The notes beneath the pieces were generated by a model, which did not search any database, had not been told where the DNA came from, and saw nothing but the letters and a program-made list of their open reading frames with translations. This document shows positions 17,876-43,293 of a DNA stretch of 56,497 nt, in pieces (position 1 is the first letter of the stretch; the number at the start of each line of letters is the position of its first letter). Position numbers and translations under genes: made by a program. The stretch is taken from positions 1 through 56,497 of IMG/VR virus record IMGVR_UViG_3300008267_005425; one strand, written 5' to 3'. The stretch is from a virus (lineage: Duplodnaviria > Caudoviricetes).

Positions 17876-19519
17876 CTAGTAGTAGCTTGGAACTGAGGAC
17901 TCTTTTTCTTCTTTTTCTTCAGGATCAAAACTGATAACGCACTCTGTGGTGAGCAGTGTTCCAGCTACAGAATTTGCTAACTCCAATGCTGTACGTGTAA
18001 CTTTGGTTGGATCCACAATTCCAGCCTCAAACATATTACACACAACATCTTGTCTAGCATCGTAACCAATAAATGCTGCGTCCTCTTTCTTATCCTTAAT
18101 AGCGTACTCAATTAAGTGAGCTACGGTATTTGGACTTTGTCCAGCATTTTCTACGATAGCACCAAATGGCGCTGCGCAGGCCTTTTTGATAATCTTAACA
18201 CCTAACGCCTGATCATCGTTTTCTGTCTCAACTTCCAACTTCTCACTAGCGTGTAGTAGTGCCATTCCTCCACCAGCAACAATACCCTCTTCAACAGCAG
18301 CTCTCGTTGCGTGTAGAGCATCATCAACTCTATCTTTCTTTTCTTTTAGTTCGATCTCAGTCGCTGCACCAATGTTCAGTACTGCAACACCTCCGATTAG
18401 TTTGCTTAAACGCTCTTTTAGAAATTGCTTCTCATAGTCGCTGTCTGCTGACTCGTACTGGTCTTTAATGTGTTGGATGCGCTCCTTGATAGCTTCTGAA
18501 TCTCCAGCACCATCAACAATAACAGTCTCGTCTTTGTTTACTGTAACCATTCTTGCTGTACCTAGTTGATTCATTGTAAGCTTTTCTAGCTTCATTCCCT
18601 TCTGAGTTGCAACTACTTCGCCACCAGTTAAGATAGCCATATCTTCTAGCATGTGGATTTTACGATCTCCAAATCCTGGTGACTTAATAGCACAGATGTT
18701 TAGAATACCTCGAGCTTTATTGACAACCATAGTTGCAAGCGCTTCTCCATCAACATCGTCTGCTACGATCAAGAGCGGCTTACCTTGCTTGCTACAATTC
18801 TCTAGTAAAGCCAACACCTCTTTAACGCTACCGATCTTTCTATCGTAGAATAGGATTAACGGATTCTCTAAAGTCGTACTCATTGTACTTTGGTTTGATA
18901 CAAAGTAGGGTGAAATGAATCCACGATCAACCTGCATACCTTCTACAACCTCCAAAGTCGTTTCTGAGGTCTTACTTTCGTCAACTTGGATCACACCATC
19001 TTTCCCAACACTATCCATAGCCTCAGCAATGATGTTTCCTACACTCGTATCATTATTAGCTGAGATAGTTGCTACTTGACGAATCTCGTCAATAGATTTC
19101 ACATCACGACTAATCTCACGCAAAGACTCGATAACTTGAGTAGTAGCTTTATCCATTCCACGCTTTAACTCTACTGGATTAACTCCTGCATTGATAGCTT
19201 TCAATCCTTCGTTATACATAACGGAAGCTAGTACTGTTGCTGTAGTTGTTCCATCACCAGCCATTTTTGCTGCTTTCATTGAAACCTCTTTGATAGCTTG
19301 AGCACCCATATTTTCAATTGGGTCTGTAAGGTGTATCTCCTTTGCAACTGAAACACCATCTTTAGTAATTACTGGTGCACCATTTTCTTTTTCGATCAAT
19401 ACATTGCGTCCTTTAGGACCTAGTGTGGACTTAACTGCAGAAGATAGTTTGTTTACTCCACTGCGCACCTTATCTCGTGCTTCCACATCATAACTGATAA
19501 TTCTTGACTTGTTGCTCAT
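17876..19519 (-). CDS. groEL: Chaperonin GroEL
   Basis: [71 protein letters not shown]. Confidence 0.97.
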
Positions 19520-19521
19520 CG

Positions 19522-19824
19522 TTACTCGTTGATTTTTGTTATTACATCTCTTTCTTGTACTGAATGATACTCTACTCCTTCGTATTCGAATGTTTGTGCA
19601 GCAAAGCGTTGGTATAGAATTACATCACCTGGTTTGATTGTTGTTTCGATAAAAAGGTTAGGGGCTGCCCAAAATCCTTTTCCTACATACTGCACTCTCG
19701 CTTTAAGAAGCTTCTGTTCACTAATCTCGGGAAGTATGATACCTCCCTCACTCATTTCGTCTTGCTCGACCGGAAGACAGATCAGCTTGTCGCTGATAGG
19801 ACTAAATAAATTGTTGTTCTCCAT
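19522..19824 (-). CDS. groES: Co-chaperonin GroES
   Basis: PISDK, GGIILP mobile loop, VGKG, KPGDVI; directly upstream of groEL. Confidence 0.93.
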   Translation of the reverse strand: MENNNLFSPISDKLICLPVEQDEMSEGGIILPEISEQKLLKARVQYVGKGFWAAPNLFIETTIKPGDVILYQRFAAQTFEYEGVEYHSVQERDVITKINE

Positions 19825-27530: not shown

Positions 27531-27905
27531 TTACAATGTAACTGTAAAGATTTCTTTAATTACGATTTCATCTGCCTCTAAAGTACCACCAGCCTCTTCA
27601 CGCAACTGCACAGCTACTGCATAGTCGATTGAAATACCTGGCTTCTTCTCAATCCACATTTCTGTGATAAATGTTGATGACTTGATCTCGTTGTGCTTGT
27701 TTCTCTTTACTCGAAACACTGCTACTTTTACTTGTTGATTCATGCTACTTGAATTACTATTTAATGTTAAACCTCCATAAATGGTTGTACCTGGTGAGGC
27801 AATGTAGCTCGTACCGGTACTTAGTGTAGCGTTAAGACTACTACATCCCGTTGTTAAAGTTCCTGATGTGATATTAGTATTATACTCCATAACGACTTTG
27901 ATCAA
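27531..27905 (-). CDS. Hypothetical protein (T/S/G-rich N-terminus)
   Basis: ORF abutting neighbours. Confidence 0.6.
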
Positions 27906-28527
27906 TTAAGTTAAAAAATTCTTGTCTTGTGCCAATCTCATTGGTCCAGAAGTATCCAGACATTTGTGATGTCTTCATTACACTGTCTTGTTTGATTCCG
28001 CGACACTTAACACAGTTGTGTTGTGACTCGATTACTACTGCAACTCCTCGATTACCTATACACAAACGATCAACGTGGTCGTGAATTTGTTTAGTCAGTG
28101 ACTCTTGGATATTCGGACGACGAGAATAGAAATCTACAATACGGTTCAACTTACTTAATCCAATTACCAAATCACCTTTATCTTTTCCTGGAATATAAGC
28201 TACGTGAGCTACTCCTGAGAATGTTAAGTTGTGATGTGCACACATACTCATTACTGGAATACGAGTCTGACAGATAAGCCCTGTGTATCCTTCGTCGTTA
28301 GGGAATGCTGTTACTTCTGGTTCCGGTGCAATTGATCCAGCAATTAGGTCATTCACCCAAGCCTTAGCTACTCGGTACGGAGTACGATCACTGTGTGGAT
28401 CTGCTTTCCAATCGAAACCTAGTGCTGTTAAGAATCCTCCATAGTACTCAGCAGCTTTTTCGATCATCTGCTTTTTTTCTTCCTCCGTACGAGGAATGTT
28501 TCCATTTGCTTTTGTGATTAACTTCAT
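27880..28527 (-). CDS. folE: GTP cyclohydrolase I
   Basis: [41 protein letters not shown]. Confidence 0.96.
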
Positions 28528-29952: not shown

Positions 29953-30729
29953 TTAAACTCCTCTTTTTGTATCGTAAGCAATGATGTGATCTCGTCCCGT
30001 CATATTGTAACCACGCTCAGCACACATCTCAAATACTATCGGATACATCCTAATAAGCTCTTCACGAGTATCACCCGCTGGCATAATATACGTTTTTTCT
30101 TTTGGAATCAAAAGCTCGAGTCTAAGATTTTCTATCTCTTCGAGGTTCTTTTCTGTACCATCCCATACCGGCTTGTAGTGATAGTCTGCGTGATAAGTTA
30201 TCATCTCTTTCATTGCCATCTTGTTGAGTCTGAACTTATCATGCTGCTTAATCATCTTCTCATCCGTGATCGTCCCTTGCGGCGTAGGAGTACCCAAAAC
30301 GGGAACGCTATTGCTAAACTTAGGACTAAGACTGATAAGCCCAATAGGATAATCAGTAGCAATAAAATGTGAACCCTCAGTCTCAATAGTGATAAGAATG
30401 CCTTTTTCATGTGCAAAGTGTGTTAGCTCGTTTACTAGAGCTGGATGCATTGTAGGCGATCCACCAGTAAGCATCATCTCCTTGATGTGTGGATTCTCGT
30501 CGTATATCTTTGTGATATCATTAAACGTGAATGTTCCCTTCTCTGGATGAATACTAGTGTACCAGCTGTCACACCATCCTCCTTCTCCAAAGAAACATCT
30601 GTGAGTGCATCCGGTTGTTCGTACTGCGATTGTTGGTCGGCCAAATCTTGACCCTTCTGATTGTACACATCGATAGAGTTCAACTATCGGTAGTACTTTA
30701 TTGTAATCTGTAACTCTTCCTGGTGTCAT
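29953..30729 (-). CDS. queE: 7-carboxy-7-deazaguanine synthase (radical SAM)
   Basis: VQSEG, RTTGCTHRC...WCDS, LTGGSP, TIETEG, SLSPK; start reassigned to MTPGR. Confidence 0.93.
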   Translation of the reverse strand: MTPGRVTDYNKVLPIVELYRCVQSEGSRFGRPTIAVRTTGCTHRCFFGEGGWCDSWYTSIHPEKGTFTFNDITKIYDENPHIKEMMLTGGSPTMHPALVNELTHFAHEKGILITIETEGSHFIATDYPIGLISLSPKFSNSVPVLGTPTPQGTITDEKMIKQHDKFRLNKMAMKEMITYHADYHYKPVWDGTEKNLEEIENLRLELLIPKEKTYIMPAGDTREELIRMYPIVFEMCAERGYNMTGRDHIIAYDTKRGV

Positions 30730-30730
30730 A

Positions 30731-30985
30731 TTAAAATGGTAATTCGTCGTCATGTATTGATCCCACGGACTCAGCTCCTTTACTATCGGGGGTTGTATTA
30801 TTTCCAAAGTAGCGATCTAAGAACGATTTAGGGTACTTTAAAATTAAACCCGAGTAATTTGGATTCTCAACTTCATGGGCTGTTGCCTTTATTCCCTTAG
30901 CTTTTGCAGCGGCATAAACTTCCTTTCCTAGTTTGGAACCAGCAGGTTTGCCAAGATACTCGTATAGTGATAAATAGTTTTCCAT
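30731..30985 (-). CDS. Hypothetical protein
   Basis: ORF beginning YLSLYEYLGKPAG. Confidence 0.7.
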   Translation of the reverse strand: MENYLSLYEYLGKPAGSKLGKEVYAAAKAKGIKATAHEVENPNYSGLILKYPKSFLDRYFGNNTTPDSKGAESVGSIHDDELPF

Positions 30986-31052: not shown

Positions 31053-31529
31053 CTATCCTTCATAGATGCTTGAGTTTTTATCGTTTTCAAAACATTCAAC
31101 TTTAATGCACTTACAACGTCCTGCATCTGTTTTAGATAACACGTCATTGAATTTATCGTACACCAGCTTTGCACAAGACTCAGCTCCCATCTTCTCCATG
31201 AAGTGAACCTTAGCAAGTCCCATCTGACCTAGCTGTTCAAATATATCTGCATACGGATCATCCTTTTGAATTAGTAGTGTATGATCCCACATATGATCCA
31301 TCCACGACTTTAATCCATTACCAACTGGTGCATCTTTGAAACCTCCGTAATCAACTATCCAGTTCATATCGTCAAGTTGATTCTCTTCTAGTGGTTCGTT
31401 TGAAGCAAACCAAACCTTAAACTTGAGTGCATATCCGTGTAATAGCTCACAATGTGAGTGTGATGCTTTCCATTGACGTATTGCAACAGAATAATTGTCA
31501 AATAACTTTGTCGAAATGTATCTACCCAT
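31053..31529 (-). CDS. queD: 6-carboxy-5,6,7,8-tetrahydropterin synthase
   Basis: CELLHGY, WIVDYG, DHTLL, GAE, VECFE; start MGRY. Confidence 0.92.
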   Translation of the reverse strand: MGRYISTKLFDNYSVAIRQWKASHSHCELLHGYALKFKVWFASNEPLEENQLDDMNWIVDYGGFKDAPVGNGLKSWMDHMWDHTLLIQKDDPYADIFEQLGQMGLAKVHFMEKMGAESCAKLVYDKFNDVLSKTDAGRCKCIKVECFENDKNSSIYEG

Positions 31530-31668
31530 TTTTCTTTGATTTTTTTGATTTTTTAATATCAGTATGATACTCCGTATCAATGCTTGCTAGTTCAATAGTA
31601 ATGTACTCAGGTGTTAGTTGATCTAATCCTATTCCCGTACATACTGTAATTGTGTTCTTTTTTGCCAT
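31522..31668 (-). CDS. Small hypothetical protein
   Basis: MAKKNTITVCTGIG; fills the gap. Confidence 0.5.
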   Translation of the reverse strand: MAKKNTITVCTGIGLDQLTPEYITIELASIDTEYHTDIKKSKKSKKNG

Positions 31669-32401: not shown

Positions 32402-33772
32402 TTAGTAATCCAAATCCTCATCCAAATCATCACTCACATCACCGGGCTTGCCTAACACGAGAGCAAACGCAACACCTTGAGGACCTGCTTTTTTTCTGTA
32501 ATTTGGAATTACAAGCCCAATTGTCTTATACAAGTGTGGTCTTAGTCCGTTTCCATTAGCAGGGAATGCTAGTACGGAGAAGTTTTCTTTTGAAGGGGCT
32601 CCTGAGGCTACTGAGGCATCTGTAACTATGAATATCTTATCACCCTCTTCGAGGCTCATATAGTAATCCATATAGTAACATGCAAAATCAACCAAGAACG
32701 CTGTTTGATTAAGAGTACCATCATCATTAAGATGCTTTTTAATCCACATCCAATCATTAGGACTCTGTCTTTCCGTTAGCGCTTTACCAAAACCTCCGCT
32801 CATTGCCGTGATAAGTTCCTCTTTTGTAACCGGTTCATCGTCTTTTGTAAGCTCGATTAACTGCTTATTCATATCCTCTATTGCAGTTATCCAGCCATCT
32901 TTGCGACTAGATCCGTACCGTCCATTATCTTCAATCACTTTAAAAGTCGGTCCAGACATTGGCTTAGCTGTTCCGGATGGTGATATAGCTGTAGACATTA
33001 ATAAGTCTTTTTCTTGCGCAAGCTTTCTGTATCCTTCTTTAAAGCCTTCTTGAGCTTCTTCTGGAGACCCTAAACCTCCCTGCGCTCTAAGTCTTTTCTT
33101 GAAACCTCCTACCTCAAAGGGAACATCATTAACAAGTAAATCTCCTGATTTTTTTGGCCTTGATCCCAATTTTAACAACACTGCTAACAACACTTCTACT
33201 GTTCCTAATTGTGGTGTTGCACTCCATCTATACAATGCTAGGTTTCCAAGGGTACTAGCCGATAATCCTGTTTGTGCAAACAAATCAGCCAGTCTAGCTG
33301 GTGTGTTTTGGAACGACGTCCAATCGACACCATTAGTATCTCGGTTTAGCAAATACGTATGCAATGCTGACTGGTCTGTGCTCTCTTGCAGTAGTATGTC
33401 AATAATTTCATCAGCATGCCCACTATCACCTCTTAGTGATTTTTCAACTGCTTTTGTAATTGCCTCTTCAAAACTAGCGTTACGCTTTATGAGACTGTTA
33501 ATTTTTGCAATTGTTTTTGGCGATATGATAACCTCAGGATCTGACAGAGCAGCTATTAGTTGCTCTTTTGTCATCTCTATTACTTGTGCCACCTGCTGAG
33601 GTTCTGCTTTTTTCTTCGCTTCAAGGTTAAGTGGCTCATCAAACCCATACTCAGCCATAACCTCTTGAAGAACCTTTAACTCCTTTTTGTCAGTGAACTT
33701 ACCATCCTTCATTGTAGGATAGCCTTTTGGTAGTCTGTACGACCACTCTGCTACTATTTCATCCCAATTCAT
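32402..33772 (-). CDS. Hypothetical 456-aa protein, possibly virion-associated, with a degenerate nuclease-like motif
   Basis: N-terminal EWSYRLPKGYP; central GTVEVLL...GDL...EVGG. Confidence 0.7.
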   Translation of the reverse strand: MNWDEIVAEWSYRLPKGYPTMKDGKFTDKKELKVLQEVMAEYGFDEPLNLEAKKKAEPQQVAQVIEMTKEQLIAALSDPEVIISPKTIAKINSLIKRNASFEEAITKAVEKSLRGDSGHADEIIDILLQESTDQSALHTYLLNRDTNGVDWTSFQNTPARLADLFAQTGLSASTLGNLALYRWSATPQLGTVEVLLAVLLKLGSRPKKSGDLLVNDVPFEVGGFKKRLRAQGGLGSPEEAQEGFKEGYRKLAQEKDLLMSTAISPSGTAKPMSGPTFKVIEDNGRYGSSRKDGWITAIEDMNKQLIELTKDDEPVTKEELITAMSGGFGKALTERQSPNDWMWIKKHLNDDGTLNQTAFLVDFACYYMDYYMSLEEGDKIFIVTDASVASGAPSKENFSVLAFPANGNGLRPHLYKTIGLVIPNYRKKAGPQGVAFALVLGKPGDVSDDLDEDLDY

Positions 33773-36836: not shown

Positions 36837-38207
36837 TTACTTTGCTAAATTCTGTAATTCTGAAAATTTATTTGCAAGAGCTTTTCTTACAACCTCAGAA
36901 TCATTTTGCATCATGGCCTTTGCTTCTTTACCTAGAACTGTAGTCTCAGCAAAGATTTCAATTCTTGAAGCCGACATATTCATTCGACTTGGGAAGGTTA
37001 AACCATCCGGACCGAATCGATTCTTGATAACGTGCCATCTTCCAGTACCACTAATCTTATCGGCAACCTTTCGTGATAAGGATACAACAAAGTCGGCTAC
37101 CATCACCTTAGAGTAAGACTCTGCAATCTTATCTGCTTCAATGATATCTTCCTCTAGTGCTGATCGGTTTGCTTGTGATGCTGTGTAGATTGGAATTTGA
37201 TATGTACCAGCCATACCTCGCAAGTCTTCATAAATGTTACCCAGCATGATATCGTTTCGTACAGCTCCCTTTGAGCTTGTATCTCTTAACAAGTCGGCGT
37301 AGTCTACTAACACTAGATCAGGTTGGAAGCCTTGCATGATGCATTTGTCAAGGTGTGCTGATAGCATTGTCACTGTAGCTGTCTTTGTTGGATAGTACTT
37401 TATGATCAACCTTCCTTTGAGTTTGTTTAGTTTCTCAACAACCTCTTCCTGGTGAAACTTTAGGTCTTGTGATGGAATCCCGGTATAGTGTGAATCAAAG
37501 CGTGCACCTACGTAGGTTTCGGAAAGCTCTAAAGTATAGTAGATGACGTTAAGCCCACTCTTGACAGCAGCTGCTGCTATGTTTACTAATGCCATTGACT
37601 TACCAATACCAGCTGGTGCTACGAATACTCCCATCTCGCCACTACCCAAACCACCATCCATGATCTCATTGATTACGTCCCATGGTGTTGGGATTGTATT
37701 TCTTTTATTCTCAACAAACCTTGCACCAATGTCATCTAGGTATTCGTGACCTATGTTTCGATCCGTTCCTGCTTTCATAGCTTCATCGATAGCCGTTTTG
37801 ATATCATCATACTTTCCGGACTGAAGCAGTTGAACTGACTGCAGTATAGCTTCTTTGATCTTTTGATTTTTACAGAACTCCAATGTCCGATCTTTGATAA
37901 AATCAAGATCAGTCGAGTCTGCATATCGGACTACCTCTTTTAGGTTTTCTACAATAGCTACCTTAAGCATAGGTTCCTTCTCTTCGTCCACGTGAATCTT
38001 TAACGCTTCAAGTGTTGGTGGGGACTTATACTTATCAAAGTACTCCATAAGAGTCTGAGCTATCCATTGAGATGAGTCTGACGAAAAATACTTTGGATCT
38101 ATGATATCGTGTATCTGTTGAAGAAACACCCTATCCTTAATCAAAAGTGTCAGTACCTTGTTCTGAAATGCTGTTCCGTAAAATTGTAATGTATCTTGTT
38201 CTTGCAT
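36837..38207 (-). CDS. dnaB: Replicative DnaB/gp41-like helicase
   Basis: Walker A APAGIGKS, YTLEL, VDYADL, TASQANR, KNRFG. Confidence 0.95.
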   Translation of the reverse strand: MQEQDTLQFYGTAFQNKVLTLLIKDRVFLQQIHDIIDPKYFSSDSSQWIAQTLMEYFDKYKSPPTLEALKIHVDEEKEPMLKVAIVENLKEVVRYADSTDLDFIKDRTLEFCKNQKIKEAILQSVQLLQSGKYDDIKTAIDEAMKAGTDRNIGHEYLDDIGARFVENKRNTIPTPWDVINEIMDGGLGSGEMGVFVAPAGIGKSMALVNIAAAAVKSGLNVIYYTLELSETYVGARFDSHYTGIPSQDLKFHQEEVVEKLNKLKGRLIIKYYPTKTATVTMLSAHLDKCIMQGFQPDLVLVDYADLLRDTSSKGAVRNDIMLGNIYEDLRGMAGTYQIPIYTASQANRSALEEDIIEADKIAESYSKVMVADFVVSLSRKVADKISGTGRWHVIKNRFGPDGLTFPSRMNMSASRIEIFAETTVLGKEAKAMMQNDSEVVRKALANKFSELQNLAK

Positions 38208-38214
38208 ATGACTA

Positions 38215-38243
38215 ACTATACTAATTTCATTTTAATCTAGCAA
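38215..38243 (-). promoter_or_regulatory. Promoter TTGCTA-N17-TATAGT
   Basis: Repeated architecture; upstream of the helicase. Confidence 0.65.
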
Positions 38244-39284
38244 GGTATATTGATCTAACTTTTGAGTAACCTCTCTTATCCACACTTCGATGTTTCTAAT
38301 TGCATTTGTCATTCCATCTTCAAAAATCATTTGATGAAACTTTATCTTTGCTAATTTTGGGACTGAAGATTCTACTGTGGTTATTACTCTGAGTCTAGTG
38401 CTCGTTGGTATTCCACTCTCAGAAAGCTGCATGATCTGGTGGAATAAACGGATGTCGCTTTCTGCTTGAACTACCTTCTCATAGAGCTTCACTTTTGGGT
38501 TTTCAATAGCCAATCCCTTAGCATATTCAATAAAGTCATCAACACTGATGTAATCTGAACCGGTTAGCTTTGGAAACCTGCTTGCTATAGTTTTTGCTCC
38601 CAATCCCGATACGCCTGGAATGTTATCACTATCGTCCCCTAATAGAGCTCGATAAAGTGCGAAGTTGTATGGCATGATGTTGTAAGTCTCATAAACATCA
38701 TTTGTATAAAATAGTTGCTTTTTTGTTGGACTCCAAATATGAATACGATCATTCACTAATTGCATAAAGTCCTTATCGGAAGACATGATAAATACCTGAG
38801 AATCCTTTTCCTTGAGGTAGTCTTCTGAGATGTAGGCTATAACGTCATCAGCTTCAACTCCGTCCGAAACTACTGTAGTGAAAGGTAATACTTCAATGTA
38901 CTCAACCAACCTCATCAACTGCTCTCGCTGATTGTCTTCCTTGTCGACTGTTTCTGCTCGATTCAACCTTATCTTGAAGGTACGATTGGCCTTGTACTGA
39001 GGGTAAAGCTTTTTACGCTTTGCCGATCCATCCTTTCCATCAAACACAATGATAACTCGAGTTGGATTGATTGCTTTAATAGCATGTCCAACACTTAATA
39101 GAAATCCTGAGATTCCGCCCACATGCTCACCGTTGATGTTTGTAGTAGGACTTGCAGCATAAGCTCTAATGAAAGTGTTGAGGCCGTCAACAATCAACAC
39201 TCGAGAATTCTTTGTGTCTCGTTGATCAGCCCCTTCACCCCTAAGTTTTACTTCATTAAAGTATGCGAGATACTTTTTGTTCAT
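38232..39284 (-). CDS. 5'-3' exonuclease / flap endonuclease (T4 RNase H-like)
   Basis: VDGLN, VFDG, YPQYKANR, EADDVI, SSDKDFMQL, GDDSDNIPGV.GLG.KT. Confidence 0.95.
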   Translation of the reverse strand: MNKKYLAYFNEVKLRGEGADQRDTKNSRVLIVDGLNTFIRAYAASPTTNINGEHVGGISGFLLSVGHAIKAINPTRVIIVFDGKDGSAKRKKLYPQYKANRTFKIRLNRAETVDKEDNQREQLMRLVEYIEVLPFTTVVSDGVEADDVIAYISEDYLKEKDSQVFIMSSDKDFMQLVNDRIHIWSPTKKQLFYTNDVYETYNIMPYNFALYRALLGDDSDNIPGVSGLGAKTIASRFPKLTGSDYISVDDFIEYAKGLAIENPKVKLYEKVVQAESDIRLFHQIMQLSESGIPTSTRLRVITTVESSVPKLAKIKFHQMIFEDGMTNAIRNIEVWIREVTQKLDQYTLLD

Positions 39285-39288
39285 AACT

Positions 39289-40434
39289 TTAGTCTTCTAA
39301 TTCTCCTTCATCTACTGAGATTTCATCCGGATCAATTAAGTTTTGATCACGATACTTCATCACATAGATGTCACAGATTTTTTTGTAACAGTATTCTTTT
39401 AACTCTGGATCTTCTTCCAGCATAGCTCTCCACTCCTTAGATTGGAATCGAACTTCCTCACCAGTCTCTTCGTTTACTAACGTATACCAAGCACCTGATG
39501 CTTTAATTGTTCCGTAATCCTTCATAAGAGTCAACCAGCTATTGTAGTCGTCAATTCCTGAGTTAAAGTAAATATCAAACGTGGCTTTCTTGAATGGAGG
39601 ACCCATACGATTCTTAATGATCTGAGCTTCTGTTTGAACTCCAATAATCTGCTCAGTCTTACCTGATCCGCTCTTCAACTTACCTACTCCTTTCAAACGA
39701 ATACGACAGCTTGCATGGAAACCTAAAGCCTTACCACCTGATGTTGTGTACTTGTCTCCAAACATTACTCCCATCTTTTCACGTAGCTGAGATGTACACA
39801 AAAGCAACACCCTCTGCTTACCGATAATGTTTGTAATCTTACGCATTGCTTTAGACATTAGGATAGCTTTTGTAGTTGCCCAACCATCCTTCTCGTAGTC
39901 TGCATCTTGCTCTACTTTTGTAGTAGCTGCTGATACTGAGTCTAGTGCAATTGTTACTAACCGATCCTTTGAACTTTTACGTACTGTTTCGATAATGTTT
40001 TCGATTGCATCAAATGAATCTTCGATTGTCTCTAGCGGAACGTATAACATATTACTAACATCAACCCCTACAGCTCTAAGAAACTCCTCACTTAATGCAT
40101 TCTCTGTATCGATATACACAGCAAGTCCTCCCTTCTTCTGCGTGTTGGCTAGTGTATGTGCTACAATTAAACTCTTACCAGATGCTTCCATCCCTTGCAG
40201 TTCAACAATTCGACCTACTGGGAATCCTCCGTTCGGTCGATTTGATATTGCTAGGTCTAGCAGAGAAGATCCGGTTGAAATCCATTCTGTCAAGTCTGTT
40301 GGAGCTTCTTCGTCGCCATTTAAGAAATGAGCAGCTTTGAAGTCTTTGAACTTTTTGTTTAGGCTGTCTGCTAATACTGAAGCGAGTTCATCCCTTCCCG
40401 ATATTTCATCGGGCGTAACCTTCTGCTTTGCCAT
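39289..40434 (-). CDS. recA: RecA/UvsX recombinase
   Basis: ISTGS..LD, GRIVEL.G.EASGKS, YIDTENA, LDSV, SQLR, GGKAL.FHAS.R, KNR. Confidence 0.96.
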   Translation of the reverse strand: MAKQKVTPDEISGRDELASVLADSLNKKFKDFKAAHFLNGDEEAPTDLTEWISTGSSLLDLAISNRPNGGFPVGRIVELQGMEASGKSLIVAHTLANTQKKGGLAVYIDTENALSEEFLRAVGVDVSNMLYVPLETIEDSFDAIENIIETVRKSSKDRLVTIALDSVSAATTKVEQDADYEKDGWATTKAILMSKAMRKITNIIGKQRVLLLCTSQLREKMGVMFGDKYTTSGGKALGFHASCRIRLKGVGKLKSGSGKTEQIIGVQTEAQIIKNRMGPPFKKATFDIYFNSGIDDYNSWLTLMKDYGTIKASGAWYTLVNEETGEEVRFQSKEWRAMLEEDPELKEYCYKKICDIYVMKYRDQNLIDPDEISVDEGELED

Positions 40435-40439
40435 GTGGT

Positions 40440-41216
40440 TTATGAATTAAATAATGAATCGAATGCTGATGAAATGTCGTCAGTATTGGTTGCTGTAGTT
40501 GCTCCGGTGATCGGTGCAATTGCTGGCTTCGTACCTTGTGCGTCTGCTCCTGCTTCTGGATCTAACCATTTCTGCAACACCTCAGTCATTTCTTCATAAG
40601 TCGGCTCTGTGAACAACTCTGTGATTTGTTTTTGATTACCAACAATCATCTCTGCAATCTCCTTATCAGTTGTTGCTGGAGTTGTGTTAGGTTTCACTCT
40701 TACTGTGAAAGACGGAAAAGCACCTTCTTTCTCTGCAGCAATATGCTCCACAGTAACATCGCGACCATTCATTAAATCAGTGATGTCACCATAATCTGGA
40801 TCTGCAATCACACTTAAAAGTTCTGTGTAGATCTGCTTACCGAAAGCCCAAAACTTAACACCTTCATGCTCTGCACCGCGTACAATAACTGGAGCGTAAA
40901 CTCGGAACTTTGGTTCGATTTTCTTTCCTAGTTTCCAATCATCTTTGTCTCCTGACTTTTTAAGCTTCTCAGCAAACTCTACTACTGGATCAGGACGTCC
41001 GAAAGATACCGGAGATACCATTGTACGTTTTCCAATCTCGTAGTGGAAGTACATTTCTAAGAATGGATTGTTTTTGTCGAATGCGTAGGGTACGATACGT
41101 ACTTGTGATTTTCCTACTGGTGGTTTCCAAATGAAGTCGCTTGACTTGTTACCACCTCCCGTTGATTGTTGCATTGCTTGCAACTTTGCTTTAATCGCGT
41201 CTAAATTAATCGCCAT
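40440..41216 (-). CDS. gp32-like single-stranded DNA-binding protein
   Basis: WKP..G...VRIVP, G.K.WAFGK, DYGDITD...GRD; acidic/aromatic tail DDISSAFDSLF. Confidence 0.88.
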   Translation of the reverse strand: MAINLDAIKAKLQAMQQSTGGGNKSSDFIWKPPVGKSQVRIVPYAFDKNNPFLEMYFHYEIGKRTMVSPVSFGRPDPVVEFAEKLKKSGDKDDWKLGKKIEPKFRVYAPVIVRGAEHEGVKFWAFGKQIYTELLSVIADPDYGDITDLMNGRDVTVEHIAAEKEGAFPSFTVRVKPNTTPATTDKEIAEMIVGNQKQITELFTEPTYEEMTEVLQKWLDPEAGADAQGTKPAIAPITGATTATNTDDISSAFDSLFNS

Positions 41217-41288: not shown

Positions 41289-41317
41289 ACTATACTACTT
41301 TTTTCTTCTGTTGGCAA
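41289..41317 (-). promoter_or_regulatory. Promoter TTGCCA-N17-TATAGT upstream of SSB-recA
   Basis: Repeated architecture. Confidence 0.68.
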
Positions 41318-41320
41318 CGC

Positions 41321-41701
41321 TTATCGCGATAGCTCTTGTATTTTTATCAATCTGCAATTGTAATCTGAATCCGATAACAAAAGTGTGTCTTGATATTTGG
41401 TCCAATCAACTCTAAACGTCTTATCTAGTACTCCGTTGTTGAGTGATTGTATTAAACTGTTCAAAGCATTAATGCTATAAAACGTATTTGATTCTTTTTT
41501 TCTATTGATAGAGATTGTATCTTTCATTCTCCTTCCGTCACCAGCTACATTGTAAATGCACACAACGTTGTTGGGTGTTTCTACGTAAGAGTAGCATTTC
41601 ATATTCGTAACATTGTCTGTTGTATAGGTTTTGTAAACTTCACCTATACATAAAGCTAATCTATCTAAATATGTGAATGTGCATAGTAACTGTGGCTTCA
41701 T
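41321..41701 (-). CDS. Phage hypothetical protein
   Basis: QLLCTF, RKKESNTFYSINALN, NNGVLD; lies between the second PolA and SSB. Confidence 0.78.
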   Translation of the reverse strand: MKPQLLCTFTYLDRLALCIGEVYKTYTTDNVTNMKCYSYVETPNNVVCIYNVAGDGRRMKDTISINRKKESNTFYSINALNSLIQSLNNGVLDKTFRVDWTKYQDTLLLSDSDYNCRLIKIQELSR

Positions 41702-41702
41702 T

Positions 41703-41939
41703 CTACTTCTTCTCTATCGCATCAATCTGCTGCTTTAATTTTCCAATCTCACCATCCATCTTAGCAGCTTGCTTTTCTTTATCTGCCTTTTGCTGTTTTA
41801 GTGCTGATACTTTTTGATCATCTTGAGCACTAGCTGTAGATTCAAGCTCTTTTAGAGCCTTCTTACGTTTGAACTTAACTTTGTTCTCTCGCAAATAAGC
41901 TTCAATCTCAGTTCTAATAAATTGTTTTATAGATCCCAT
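41703..41939 (-). CDS. Small coiled-coil protein
   Basis: ORF preceded by TATTTATA (41957-41964). Confidence 0.7.
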   Translation of the reverse strand: MGSIKQFIRTEIEAYLRENKVKFKRKKALKELESTASAQDDQKVSALKQQKADKEKQAAKMDGEIGKLKQQIDAIEKK

Positions 41940-41973: not shown

Positions 41974-43293
41974 TTAACAAAGTTTCATTTCTGAATATGT
42001 TATTCCCTTCTTAATCTTGACAGGAAACTTATTCAGATCAATACTTTGAGGTATTACTTCCTTTAATAAATAGTCAAGCTCTTCGCTTGGCACGTCAAAA
42101 AGAATACTATCGTAGGTATAGAGTACTGCAACTGTTTTGTGGTTTTGTAGTTGATCTTGGATTGGTTTCAGAGTCAATACATTGAACTCTGTCTCATACA
42201 TCTGCAAAAAGTAGTTGAATAGTGTGTATAAGGTAATGTCCTGATAATTGGCTAATATCAGCTTTCTACCTGATACCGGACTCTCAATGTATCCATGATC
42301 TTGAGCGAAGTACCACAAACGCTCAGCTAACTCTTTTGCTGCTTTGAAAAACGGTACGTGCAAATACTGCTTACTAATTCCTCCATAAATCTGTCTGAAT
42401 GTAGATTCTTTTGCTTGTAGTATTTGTGGTTTTGTTGGTGTCTGAGTATCGTGATAATGTTTAGCCAAATGCTCATACACATCCTCAGAACCAAAGTCAT
42501 ACCCAGTGAGTGATGCGATTAACCTTGGATGGTATGAATTAAAGTCTAGCTCAACTAAGCTTCCATTCTCAAACCTACTAACAAAGCAATCTCGAGACCC
42601 ATCATCCTTATTCAAAGCTGCGAAGTTTATTCCTCCAAACCTATTACTAGGACGTCCGGTGGTTGTGTAATAGTTATACTGGGTATAGCTTTTATCCTCA
42701 TTTACAGAAAAGGATTGACCAAACGCCTCAGTAAACTTTGTAGGATTGATTTGGATACCATTCTTCTCTATGTCATAAAATGCACTCAGTAATTGGTTTT
42801 GATAGAAGTCCAGACCCGGTTGCTTCTCTGCTACATATATTCGTTCAAATAAATCGTAAGCAATATCTTCATGCTTTGGTAAGCTGACAAGTGAACCTAA
42901 TACATTACAATCTGCAATATAGCGGGCGTAGTGGTTCAAAATGCTGGGAGTCTCGAAATTACAAGGTTGATTAAGCTTTAGGTAGTATTGAAGCTGTGCG
43001 TCAATAAAACCTCTTGTATCATAACCTGCATATTTGAATAGAATTGTATCATAACTATACACATTGCAGTTATAGAGAAAGTTGAAGTCGTCAATTCGAA
43101 ATATCCCATCCGGATGAGTCTTACTGACCGAATAAGTTTGTTTAGTTTGAACGTCGATCATAACCAGTGCTACGACGTCACTTACCACTCTATGTCTACG
43201 ACTATCTTGCAATACCGGATATACGAACAAAGTTCTTCCAGATAAGCTTTCGAGTTGATGCACGCTGTCTATGATCATGCATCTAATATACAA
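41974..43293 (-). CDS. Second, minimal family A polymerase-like protein (no thumb, degenerate exonuclease)
   Basis: IEKNGI, TTTGRPSN, motif A LDFNSYHPRL, motif B AKESTFRQIYGG, NYFLQ, motif C YTYDSILFD. Confidence 0.85.
   Translation of the reverse strand: MYIRCMIIDSVHQLESLSGRTLFVYPVLQDSRRHRVVSDVVALVMIDVQTKQTYSVSKTHPDGIFRIDDFNFLYNCNVYSYDTILFKYAGYDTRGFIDAQLQYYLKLNQPCNFETPSILNHYARYIADCNVLGSLVSLPKHEDIAYDLFERIYVAEKQPGLDFYQNQLLSAFYDIEKNGIQINPTKFTEAFGQSFSVNEDKSYTQYNYYTTTGRPSNRFGGINFAALNKDDGSRDCFVSRFENGSLVELDFNSYHPRLIASLTGYDFGSEDVYEHLAKHYHDTQTPTKPQILQAKESTFRQIYGGISKQYLHVPFFKAAKELAERLWYFAQDHGYIESPVSGRKLILANYQDITLYTLFNYFLQMYETEFNVLTLKPIQDQLQNHKTVAVLYTYDSILFDVPSEELDYLLKEVIPQSIDLNKFPVKIKKGITYSEMKLC

Follow-up and report, generated by a model that had tools for sequence, protein, structure and literature searches.

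The phage polymerase family divPolA1 was described from sequence by Yutin et al. (2024, Virol J 21:200, 'DNA polymerase swapping in Caudoviricetes bacteriophages'), with gene 1 of Flavobacterium phage immuto as its prototype. According to that article, divPolA1 proteins keep the main catalytic residues of the palm, have a truncated thumb and carry replacements of all three catalytic aspartates of the exonuclease domain; the phages that encode them also carry a regular DNA polymerase of family A, B or C, and the authors judge that the polymerase activity of divPolA1 has probably been kept. The same source reports that the replication genes downstream of divPolA1 are conserved, that the regular polymerases lie in surroundings less obviously devoted to replication, with a regular polymerase noted beside GroES/GroEL, and raises the idea of an RNA polymerase for the sister family divPolA2. 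Here we examine a second, thumbless family A-like polymerase encoded in IMG/VR virus record IMGVR_UViG_3300008267_005425, a partial genome record whose full 56,497 nucleotides (a 56.5-kilobase (kb) fragment) are referred to below as the window.

The window protein is a member of the already described divPolA1 family and does not define a new one. A tblastn search aligned it to immuto gene 1 (positions 1-1326, annotated 'DNA polymerase family A') with 30.7% identity over 73% of the query (E 3e-37), and 31 of the 80 window open reading frames (ORFs) of at least 45 amino acids find a counterpart in immuto by tblastn, with their order preserved, among them the regular PolA (46%), followed by GroES and GroEL. 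The two systems share the truncated thumb, the retained palm residues and the lost exonuclease residues reported for divPolA1 by Yutin et al. (2024), a regular DNA polymerase located elsewhere beside GroES and GroEL, and an identical downstream order of genes for single-strand DNA binding protein (SSB), RecA, flap endonuclease (FEN) and DnaB. They differ in that the window protein is only about 31% identical to the prototype. The divPolA2 proteins (Rheinheimera phage Barba18A group) resemble it in being a second, thumbless and highly divergent PolA beside a regular polymerase, whereas the novel N-terminal globular domain, the lack of an exonuclease-like domain and the variable gene context described for them by Yutin et al. 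(2024) set them apart from the window protein, which has an exonuclease-fold domain and a fixed replication context. Beyond the published description, our analysis adds the size of the family (14 phages in that article against 661 cluster representatives at E <= 1e-30 here) and the status of a 126-residue protein gene as a core gene of the replication module that usually does not adjoin the polymerase. From the alignments it also adds a near-invariant His at the steric-gate position, a motif C that reads Y-D-(S/A/G), and the absence of the motif B Arg; the word 'steric' occurs nowhere in the main text of that article.

The polymerase ORF spans positions 41974-43293 on the minus strand and encodes 439 amino acids when read from TTG, the length given by an earlier reading of the letters without database searches (hereafter the sequence-only reading). 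That frame is present, although the protein itself most likely starts at the ATG at 43278 and comprises 434 residues (41974-43278), because database homologues are 434 residues long and start with MIID, including one (P0002) that is identical to the window protein. Nearly every one of the 120 top-ranking homologues in the database is 420-447 residues long, and residue numbers of divPolA1 given here count from this ATG. Both catalytic aspartates, the Lys, Phe and Tyr of motif B and the TTTGRPSN strand that the sequence-only reading had listed can be read directly from the sequence. The codon of catalytic D245 (GAC) lies at 42546-42544 and that of H250 (CAT), at the steric-gate position, at 42531-42529, both on the minus strand, while Ile rather than Arg stands four residues ahead of K290. 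The IEKNGI motif begins at residue 170, and the linker between this motif and TTTGR counts 29 residues, somewhat more than the roughly 20 first estimated, against about 188 between MEETG (238) and TSGR (432) in the 746-residue PolA of the window.

An AlphaFold2 model built from 27 homologues (mean predicted local distance difference test score, pLDDT, 91.0; predicted template modelling score 0.87) shows a Klenow-type fold in which the thumb region holds a single short helix (179-186). The top Foldseek matches of the model were Klenow and Bst polymerases (1kfd, E 2.2e-19, template modelling score 0.71 on the query). A second structural search, run independently of Foldseek, placed family A DNA polymerases at ranks 1-14 and 16 (Z 12.1-24.0, and 20-24 for the ten best), with about 380-420 of the 434 residues aligned, led by M. 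smegmatis Pol1 (Z 24.0) and including Klenow 1d9d (Z 22.6, root-mean-square deviation 3.9, 422 residues aligned). For single-subunit RNA polymerases the alignment was confined to some 260 residues in the palm and fingers, with Z scores of 12.4 for the yeast mitochondrial enzyme, 10.4 for T7, 9.2 for the human mitochondrial enzyme and 7.5 for the N4 virion polymerase, a gap that is in part due to the exonuclease-fold domain, which RNA polymerases do not have. Residues 1-170 alone align with DEDD-type exonuclease folds at Z of about 6-8 (ExnV1 7.7, RNase D 7.3). As the sequence-only reading had stated, however, the exonuclease carboxylates are unrecognisable: the first strand of this domain carries no D-x-E motif, its family consensus being FLYPI. 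The modelled fingers are trimmed and hold no insertions of the specificity-loop type, and neither a T7-type N-terminal promoter-binding domain nor a specificity loop is present in the predicted structure. The predicted fold is that of PolA and not a Toprim or primase-polymerase catalytic fold, which leaves aside whether the enzyme can start chains.

Assignment of divPolA1 to the family A DNA polymerase fold class is thus based on predicted structure, since the sequence relationship is faint. Pfam DNA_pol_A (PF00476) matched the window protein at E 0.0011 and 18.4 bits, under its cut-off of 34.3, and among three relatives scanned with the same profile one scored above the cut-off (P0122, 46.7 bits) and two below (P0094, 27.3; P0139, 29.3); PHROG 17, 'DNA polymerase', matched at 3.3e-10. 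An hhalign comparison of divPolA1 with the full PolA of the window and four homologues of the latter returned probabilities of 0.3-2.5% and is used here for motif correspondence only. It pairs TGRPSN with TSGRFSS, D245 with the motif A Asp, H250 with the Glu of SLEPR (the Klenow E710 position), K290 with the motif B Lys, and Y-D-S with H-D-E. The two polymerases of the window are not recognisable as recent paralogues, which corrects the sequence-only reading in this respect.

Relative to Klenow and other family A enzymes, divPolA1 retains the exonuclease-fold domain, palm and fingers, with the TGR strand and motifs A, B and C in identical order, but lacks the thumb helices and the D-x-E exonuclease motif and has His for E710, Ser for E883 and no equivalent of R754. 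These departures hold across the family. A profile search over 1.84 billion representatives of 50%-identity clusters returned 1339 matches at E <= 0.001, 924 at E <= 1e-10 and 661 at E <= 1e-30, and nearly all of the best 150 listed representatives are 420-470 residues long. Conservation was scored in 143 sequences, namely P0002 and the best 150 representatives after removal of eight shorter than 400 or longer than 480 residues (seven fragments and one fusion). Residues D245, K290, Y389, D390 and R209 are invariant (143/143 each); position 250 is His in 140, Phe occupies position 294 in 137 and Tyr position 298 in 141. The residue after D390 is Ser in 117 sequences, Ala in 24 and Gly in two, and never Glu, and the position four before K290 is Tyr in 87, Ile in 25, Val in 10 and Leu in eight, with Arg in only eight. 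The linker between IEKNGI and TGR measures 17-36 residues (median 32), and in the N-terminal domain H29, H55 and D93 are conserved in 133, 136 and 137 of the sequences, respectively. The window protein belongs to a subgroup of seven representatives, the largest group comprising 76 at about 31% identity.

The peculiarities that the sequence-only reading had noticed in a single protein, that is, His in place of the gate Glu, the missing Arg ahead of the motif B Lys, YDS in place of HDE and the reduced thumb, are therefore family traits. The two findings that might have undone that reading did not emerge, as the catalytic aspartates are kept in all 143 sequences and the AlphaFold2 model has no normal thumb. 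We rejected a decaying pseudogene on account of this conservation. Such complete or near-complete retention of the two metal-binding aspartates, of K290 and Y298 in motif B and of R209 in the TGR strand across 143 divergent sequences would not be expected of a protein without catalysis, and divPolA1 is a real, conserved and probably active nucleotidyltransferase. One fused form occurs among the 150 best representatives, a 935-residue protein (P0206) with its divPolA1 domain at 496-931. Its N-terminal 495 residues contain strings that by eye are reminiscent of polymerase motifs A and C; they gave no Pfam match below E 0.32 (that one under its cut-off), no PHROG match, no hhalign match to the polymerase alignment and no Atlas lead above 0.87.

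All genes of the window lie on the minus strand. Upstream of divPolA1 are genes for tail and baseplate proteins, namely sheath, tube, hub, tape measure and a 98-residue protein that resembles a baseplate wedge, and downstream lies the replication and recombination module (Table 1). The gene for the 126-residue protein (hereafter p126), which the sequence-only reading had placed just downstream of the polymerase, is separated from it in the window by an ORF for a 78-residue protein, whose stop lies one base ahead of the p126 start and which had only sub-threshold Pfam matches, all below their cut-offs. A sigma-70-like site (TTGCCA-17-TATAGT, 10 of 12 positions) lies at 41289-41317 on the minus strand, in the 105-base gap before the SSB gene. 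Since this site precedes SSB and the 78-residue and p126 genes are one base apart, the polymerase and these two genes may form one transcription unit separate from SSB. Around the divPolA1 gene, promoter-like sites are not enriched (15 against 17.7 expected), nor are terminator-like sites by our count (6 against 4.5 expected).

The arrangement was compared in two sets of IMG/VR loci, one made up of the loci nearest the window protein (587 of 599 pattern matches confirmed, best 80 kept) and one drawn from the largest group (586 of 600 confirmed, best 80 kept, less one duplicate of the first set, leaving 79). The order tail genes, divPolA1, p126, SSB, RecA, FEN, DnaB is kept in both. BLASTP detected p126 and SSB in 76 loci each of the first set, RecA in 66, FEN in 54, DnaB in 36 and the 78-residue protein in 30, the counts dropping with distance from the polymerase because the loci end. 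Three of the four loci without p126 end within about 90 bases of the polymerase end; the fourth (L076) has about 1.5 kb of downstream sequence, which falls short of the roughly 2.3-kb insert present in its closest relatives. In the second set p126 was found in 69 loci, and in the other ten the sequence past the polymerase extends for no more than 2252 bases. The gap between polymerase and p126 in this set has a median of 1292 bases and a maximum of 3366, and is below 100 bases in only nine of the 69, while the gap between p126 and SSB has a median of 185 bases. In most of the wider family divPolA1 and p126 are held apart by a variable insert that reaches 3.4 kb (loci L095-L173 and L063-L084), and p126 and SSB can be parted by another of as much as 2.8 kb. 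Homologues of p126 also occur in immuto (gene 2), in Microcystis phage Mel-JY01 and in the 484-kb record LR756508. Conservation of the gate His, of YD(S/A/G) and of thumb loss is thus accompanied by co-occurrence of p126, though mostly not by adjacency: p126 is a core gene of the module and not a tightly coupled neighbour of the polymerase. A candidate partner subunit in the sequence-only reading, p126 accompanies the polymerase wherever enough sequence is available to look for it, though usually at a distance.

Neither p126 nor a 225-residue neighbour has a match in Pfam or PHROGs. The p126 model (pLDDT 91.6) returned no Foldseek match at E <= 0.001, and its best VIA-align rows were generic ferredoxin/ACT-like halves over residues 1-65, whose Z scores of at most 7.0 lie within the range of unrelated models; no clamp or thumb-like fold was recognisable in structural searches of this model. 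Co-folding of divPolA1 with p126 scored 0.00 against a mark of 0.32, a result that bears on binding neither way.

Table 1. Positions of the divPolA1 gene, its motifs and associated replication genes in the window.
Feature	Coordinates	Strand	Remarks
divPolA1 coding sequence, 434 residues	41974..43278	-	in-frame TTG at 43293 would give 439 residues
N-terminal exonuclease-fold domain, about residues 1-150	42829..43278	-	first strand without D-x-E (consensus FLYPI)
Thumb remnant, 29 residues, residues 176-204, IEKNGI to TTTGR	42667..42753	-	from sequence and model
TTTGRPSN, residues 205-212	42643..42666	-	counterpart of PolA T-x-TGR-x-S-S; R209 in 143/143
Motif A, DFNSYHPR, residues 245-252 (within LDFNSYHPR)	42523..42546	-	D245 and H250
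Motif B, AKESTFRQIYGG, residues 289-300	42379..42414	-	K290, F294, Y298
Motif C, TYDS, residues 388-391	42106..42117	-	Y389, catalytic D390; S391 replaces Glu
78-residue Lys-rich basic helical ORF	41703..41939	-	isoelectric point 9.7; detected only in closer relatives
126-residue conserved protein (p126)	41321..41701	-	core module gene between polymerase and SSB
gp32-like single-strand DNA binding protein	40440..41216	-	
RecA-family recombinase	39289..40434	-	
Flap endonuclease / 5'-3' exonuclease (FEN)	38232..39284	-	
DnaB-like replicative helicase	36837..38207	-	
Regular family A DNA polymerase, 746 residues	20376..22616	-	Pfam DNA_pol_A 1.2e-60, 3'-5' exonuclease 1e-13

The second polymerase of the window is a complete PolA, as the sequence-only reading had held, and is followed directly by GroEL and GroES genes (17876-19824, minus strand), as in immuto. 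It has Leu, and not Phe or Tyr, four residues past its motif B Lys (AKSIALAIPYG), a position that controls dideoxynucleotide discrimination in Pol I-type enzymes. Homologues of this PolA were found in three of the five further relatives' records searched, and immuto has an annotated family A polymerase. Mel-JY01 has a PolB instead, LR756508 has PolB matches together with Pol III alpha, and in the fifth record, which is 67% complete, no regular polymerase was found. In LR756508.1 three distinct sites spread over some 6 kb (approximately 260600-266900) match the PolB profile, a pattern suggestive of a DNA polymerase B gene that is split or carries an insertion. As in the account of Yutin et al. 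(2024), divPolA1 stays constant while the main polymerase is exchanged.

A primase was also looked for. No DnaG homologue was found in the window (best E 0.18), a fragment from which absence from the genome does not follow. The relatives do encode one: immuto gene 179 is annotated as DnaG primase, with weak but consistent Pfam matches (DNAG_N at 26.2 bits, which is at the cut-off, Toprim_2 and a CHC2 zinc finger), and its homologues occur in all five further records (E 1e-60 to 1e-73), so that a DnaG-type primase is present in all six relatives examined.

The window further contains GTP cyclohydrolase, QueE-like and QueD-like genes (27880-28527, 29953-30807 and 31053-31580, minus strand), which point to 7-deazaguanine DNA modification as in immuto, and glycosyltransferase genes. 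Immuto carries DpdA and QueC, D, E and F; no homologue of its DpdA was found by tblastn in the 56.5 kb of the window. Also on the minus strand are an HNH endonuclease gene (1276-1938), with an immuto homologue at 41% identity, and, in the nucleotide-metabolism region, an ORF for 456 residues (32402-33772) that has no PHROG match and whose sole tblastn match in immuto is a stretch of 40 residues.

With a probability that we put at roughly 60%, divPolA1 is a DNA polymerase that works distributively, no longer proofreads and has an accessory part in the replication and recombination module. It would be a compact Klenow-type enzyme that combines an exonuclease-fold domain devoid of proofreading, an intact two-metal palm and a fingers pocket of the deoxyribonucleoside triphosphate (dNTP) type with almost no thumb. 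In Pol I the thumb holds the primer-template duplex and confers processivity, so that a distributive enzyme is expected where it is absent; in DNA polymerases the motif B Phe four residues past the Lys packs on the deoxyribose, and the pocket looks dNTP-type because F294 is kept. Such a template-dependent DNA polymerase, binding duplex weakly, may carry out short-patch synthesis within the SSB-RecA-FEN-DnaB module beside an interchangeable processive replicase. A polymerase together with a separate 5' nuclease can do the work of bacterial Pol I at Okazaki-fragment ends, and candidate jobs are filling and displacing at these ends for the flap endonuclease, or the extension of primers or recombination intermediates. 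The low processivity and the gap-filling, accessory role put forward by the sequence-only reading are reasonable in view of the missing thumb.

Several points weigh against this assignment. Three changes are fixed in the family (gate Glu to His, motif C Glu to Ser, Ala or Gly, and absence of the motif B Arg) and would be odd for an ordinary dNTP polymerase; two of the three recall single-subunit RNA polymerases. The His and Ser substitutions and the loss of the Arg, as seen in the alignments, remain unexplained by an accessory role and keep other explanations alive. The sequence links to PolA are weak (18.4 bits in Pfam against a cut-off of 34.3), a search of Protein Data Bank sequences with the protein and with a 27-sequence profile gave nothing at E <= 10, and full-text searches, which turned up just the 2024 article with its preprint and, for immuto, a review, found no biochemical assay of any divPolA1 member in the published literature. 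Moreover, that divPolA1 is constant while the regular polymerase is swapped could mean a central rather than an accessory role.

The active-site changes bear on the possibility that divPolA1 uses ribonucleotides, as a PolA-derived minimal RNA polymerase or primer-making enzyme of an origin like that of the T7-type polymerases. Both groups have PolA-derived palm and fingers and no Glu at the gate; motif C of T7-type RNA polymerases is HDS (Asp-Ser), comparable with the Y-D-S/A/G of divPolA1, and the structural search did return single-subunit RNA polymerases (Z 12.4, 10.4 and 9.2), besides which Yutin et al. (2024) voiced an RNA polymerase idea for divPolA2. DNA polymerases, however, reach roughly double these scores (Z 20-24 against 7.5-12.4) with an alignment 1.5 times as long, the N-terminal domain has an exonuclease fold and not a promoter-binding one, and the trimmed fingers are without specificity-loop-type insertions. 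RNA polymerases keep Arg-x3-Lys in motif B, whereas divPolA1 lacks this Arg and retains Phe four residues past the Lys. His can still serve as a steric gate; because its side chain could still block the 2'-OH, use of ribonucleoside triphosphates is not decidable from the sequence. The primase and RNA polymerase candidacies raised by the sequence-only reading are weakened accordingly, the former by the DnaG-type primases of the relatives and the latter by the structural scores, the exonuclease-fold domain and the retained Phe, and we regard ribonucleotide use in this sense as improbable.

The constancy of divPolA1 is what would be expected if it were instead the core replicase or an obligatory replisome polymerase, with grip and processivity supplied in trans by p126, the 78-residue protein, SSB or the helicase, and with the regular polymerase as an auxiliary. 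Its module position is fixed in all 159 loci examined, p126 is found in every locus with enough downstream DNA, and the regular polymerase varies among relatives between PolA, PolB and Pol III alpha, in a context that Yutin et al. (2024) describe as less clearly replicative. Yet a replicase without proofreading would be unusual for a genome of 150-190 kb, a full polymerase is kept in every complete or near-complete relative examined, and p126 lies a median of 1292 bases from the polymerase in the wider family and has no recognisable clamp or thumb-like fold; we consider this role unlikely. A polymerase specialised for unusual DNA, which would copy or fill a template bearing 7-deazaguanine or glycosylated bases or insert modified nucleotides, would account for a nucleotide pocket that is rewired family-wide and would suit the QueE-like, QueD-like, GTP cyclohydrolase and glycosyltransferase genes of the window and the DpdA and QueC, D, E and F of immuto. 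The modification genes were looked at in these two genomes only, and 7-deazaguanines enter DNA after replication through base exchange by DpdA, so that no special polymerase is required; we regard this possibility as improbable. Loss of the thumb and of the exonuclease residues is a strong reduction that would also fit a structural or regulatory subunit of polymerase origin whose catalysis is irrelevant, an explanation made highly improbable by the near-invariance of the metal-binding aspartates and of K290, Y298 and R209.

A further, unlikely possibility concerns RNA-containing substrates, to which the missing thumb and the His gate would be adaptations. In this scheme divPolA1 would be no spare repair enzyme but the single polymerase that cannot be swapped in a very large clade of aquatic myophages. 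It would either accept RNA primers made by DnaG or tolerate ribonucleotides, and would pass short stretches of DNA on to whatever processive polymerase of family A, B or C the phage has at the time. If true, the step would correspond in phages to that of eukaryotic Pol alpha, but on a PolA scaffold.

Whichever role it plays, divPolA1 occupies a constant position in the replication module of phages that abound in fresh and marine waters, and a PolA of 434 residues with neither thumb nor proofreading lends itself as a minimal scaffold to studies of the contribution of the thumb. If divPolA1 proves to be an ordinary short-patch DNA polymerase, the outcome is a routine annotation. If the His gate and the missing thumb instead reflect work on RNA primers or ribonucleotides, they would reveal a new division of labour in phage replisomes, one that would explain why the main polymerase of these phages can be swapped so freely.

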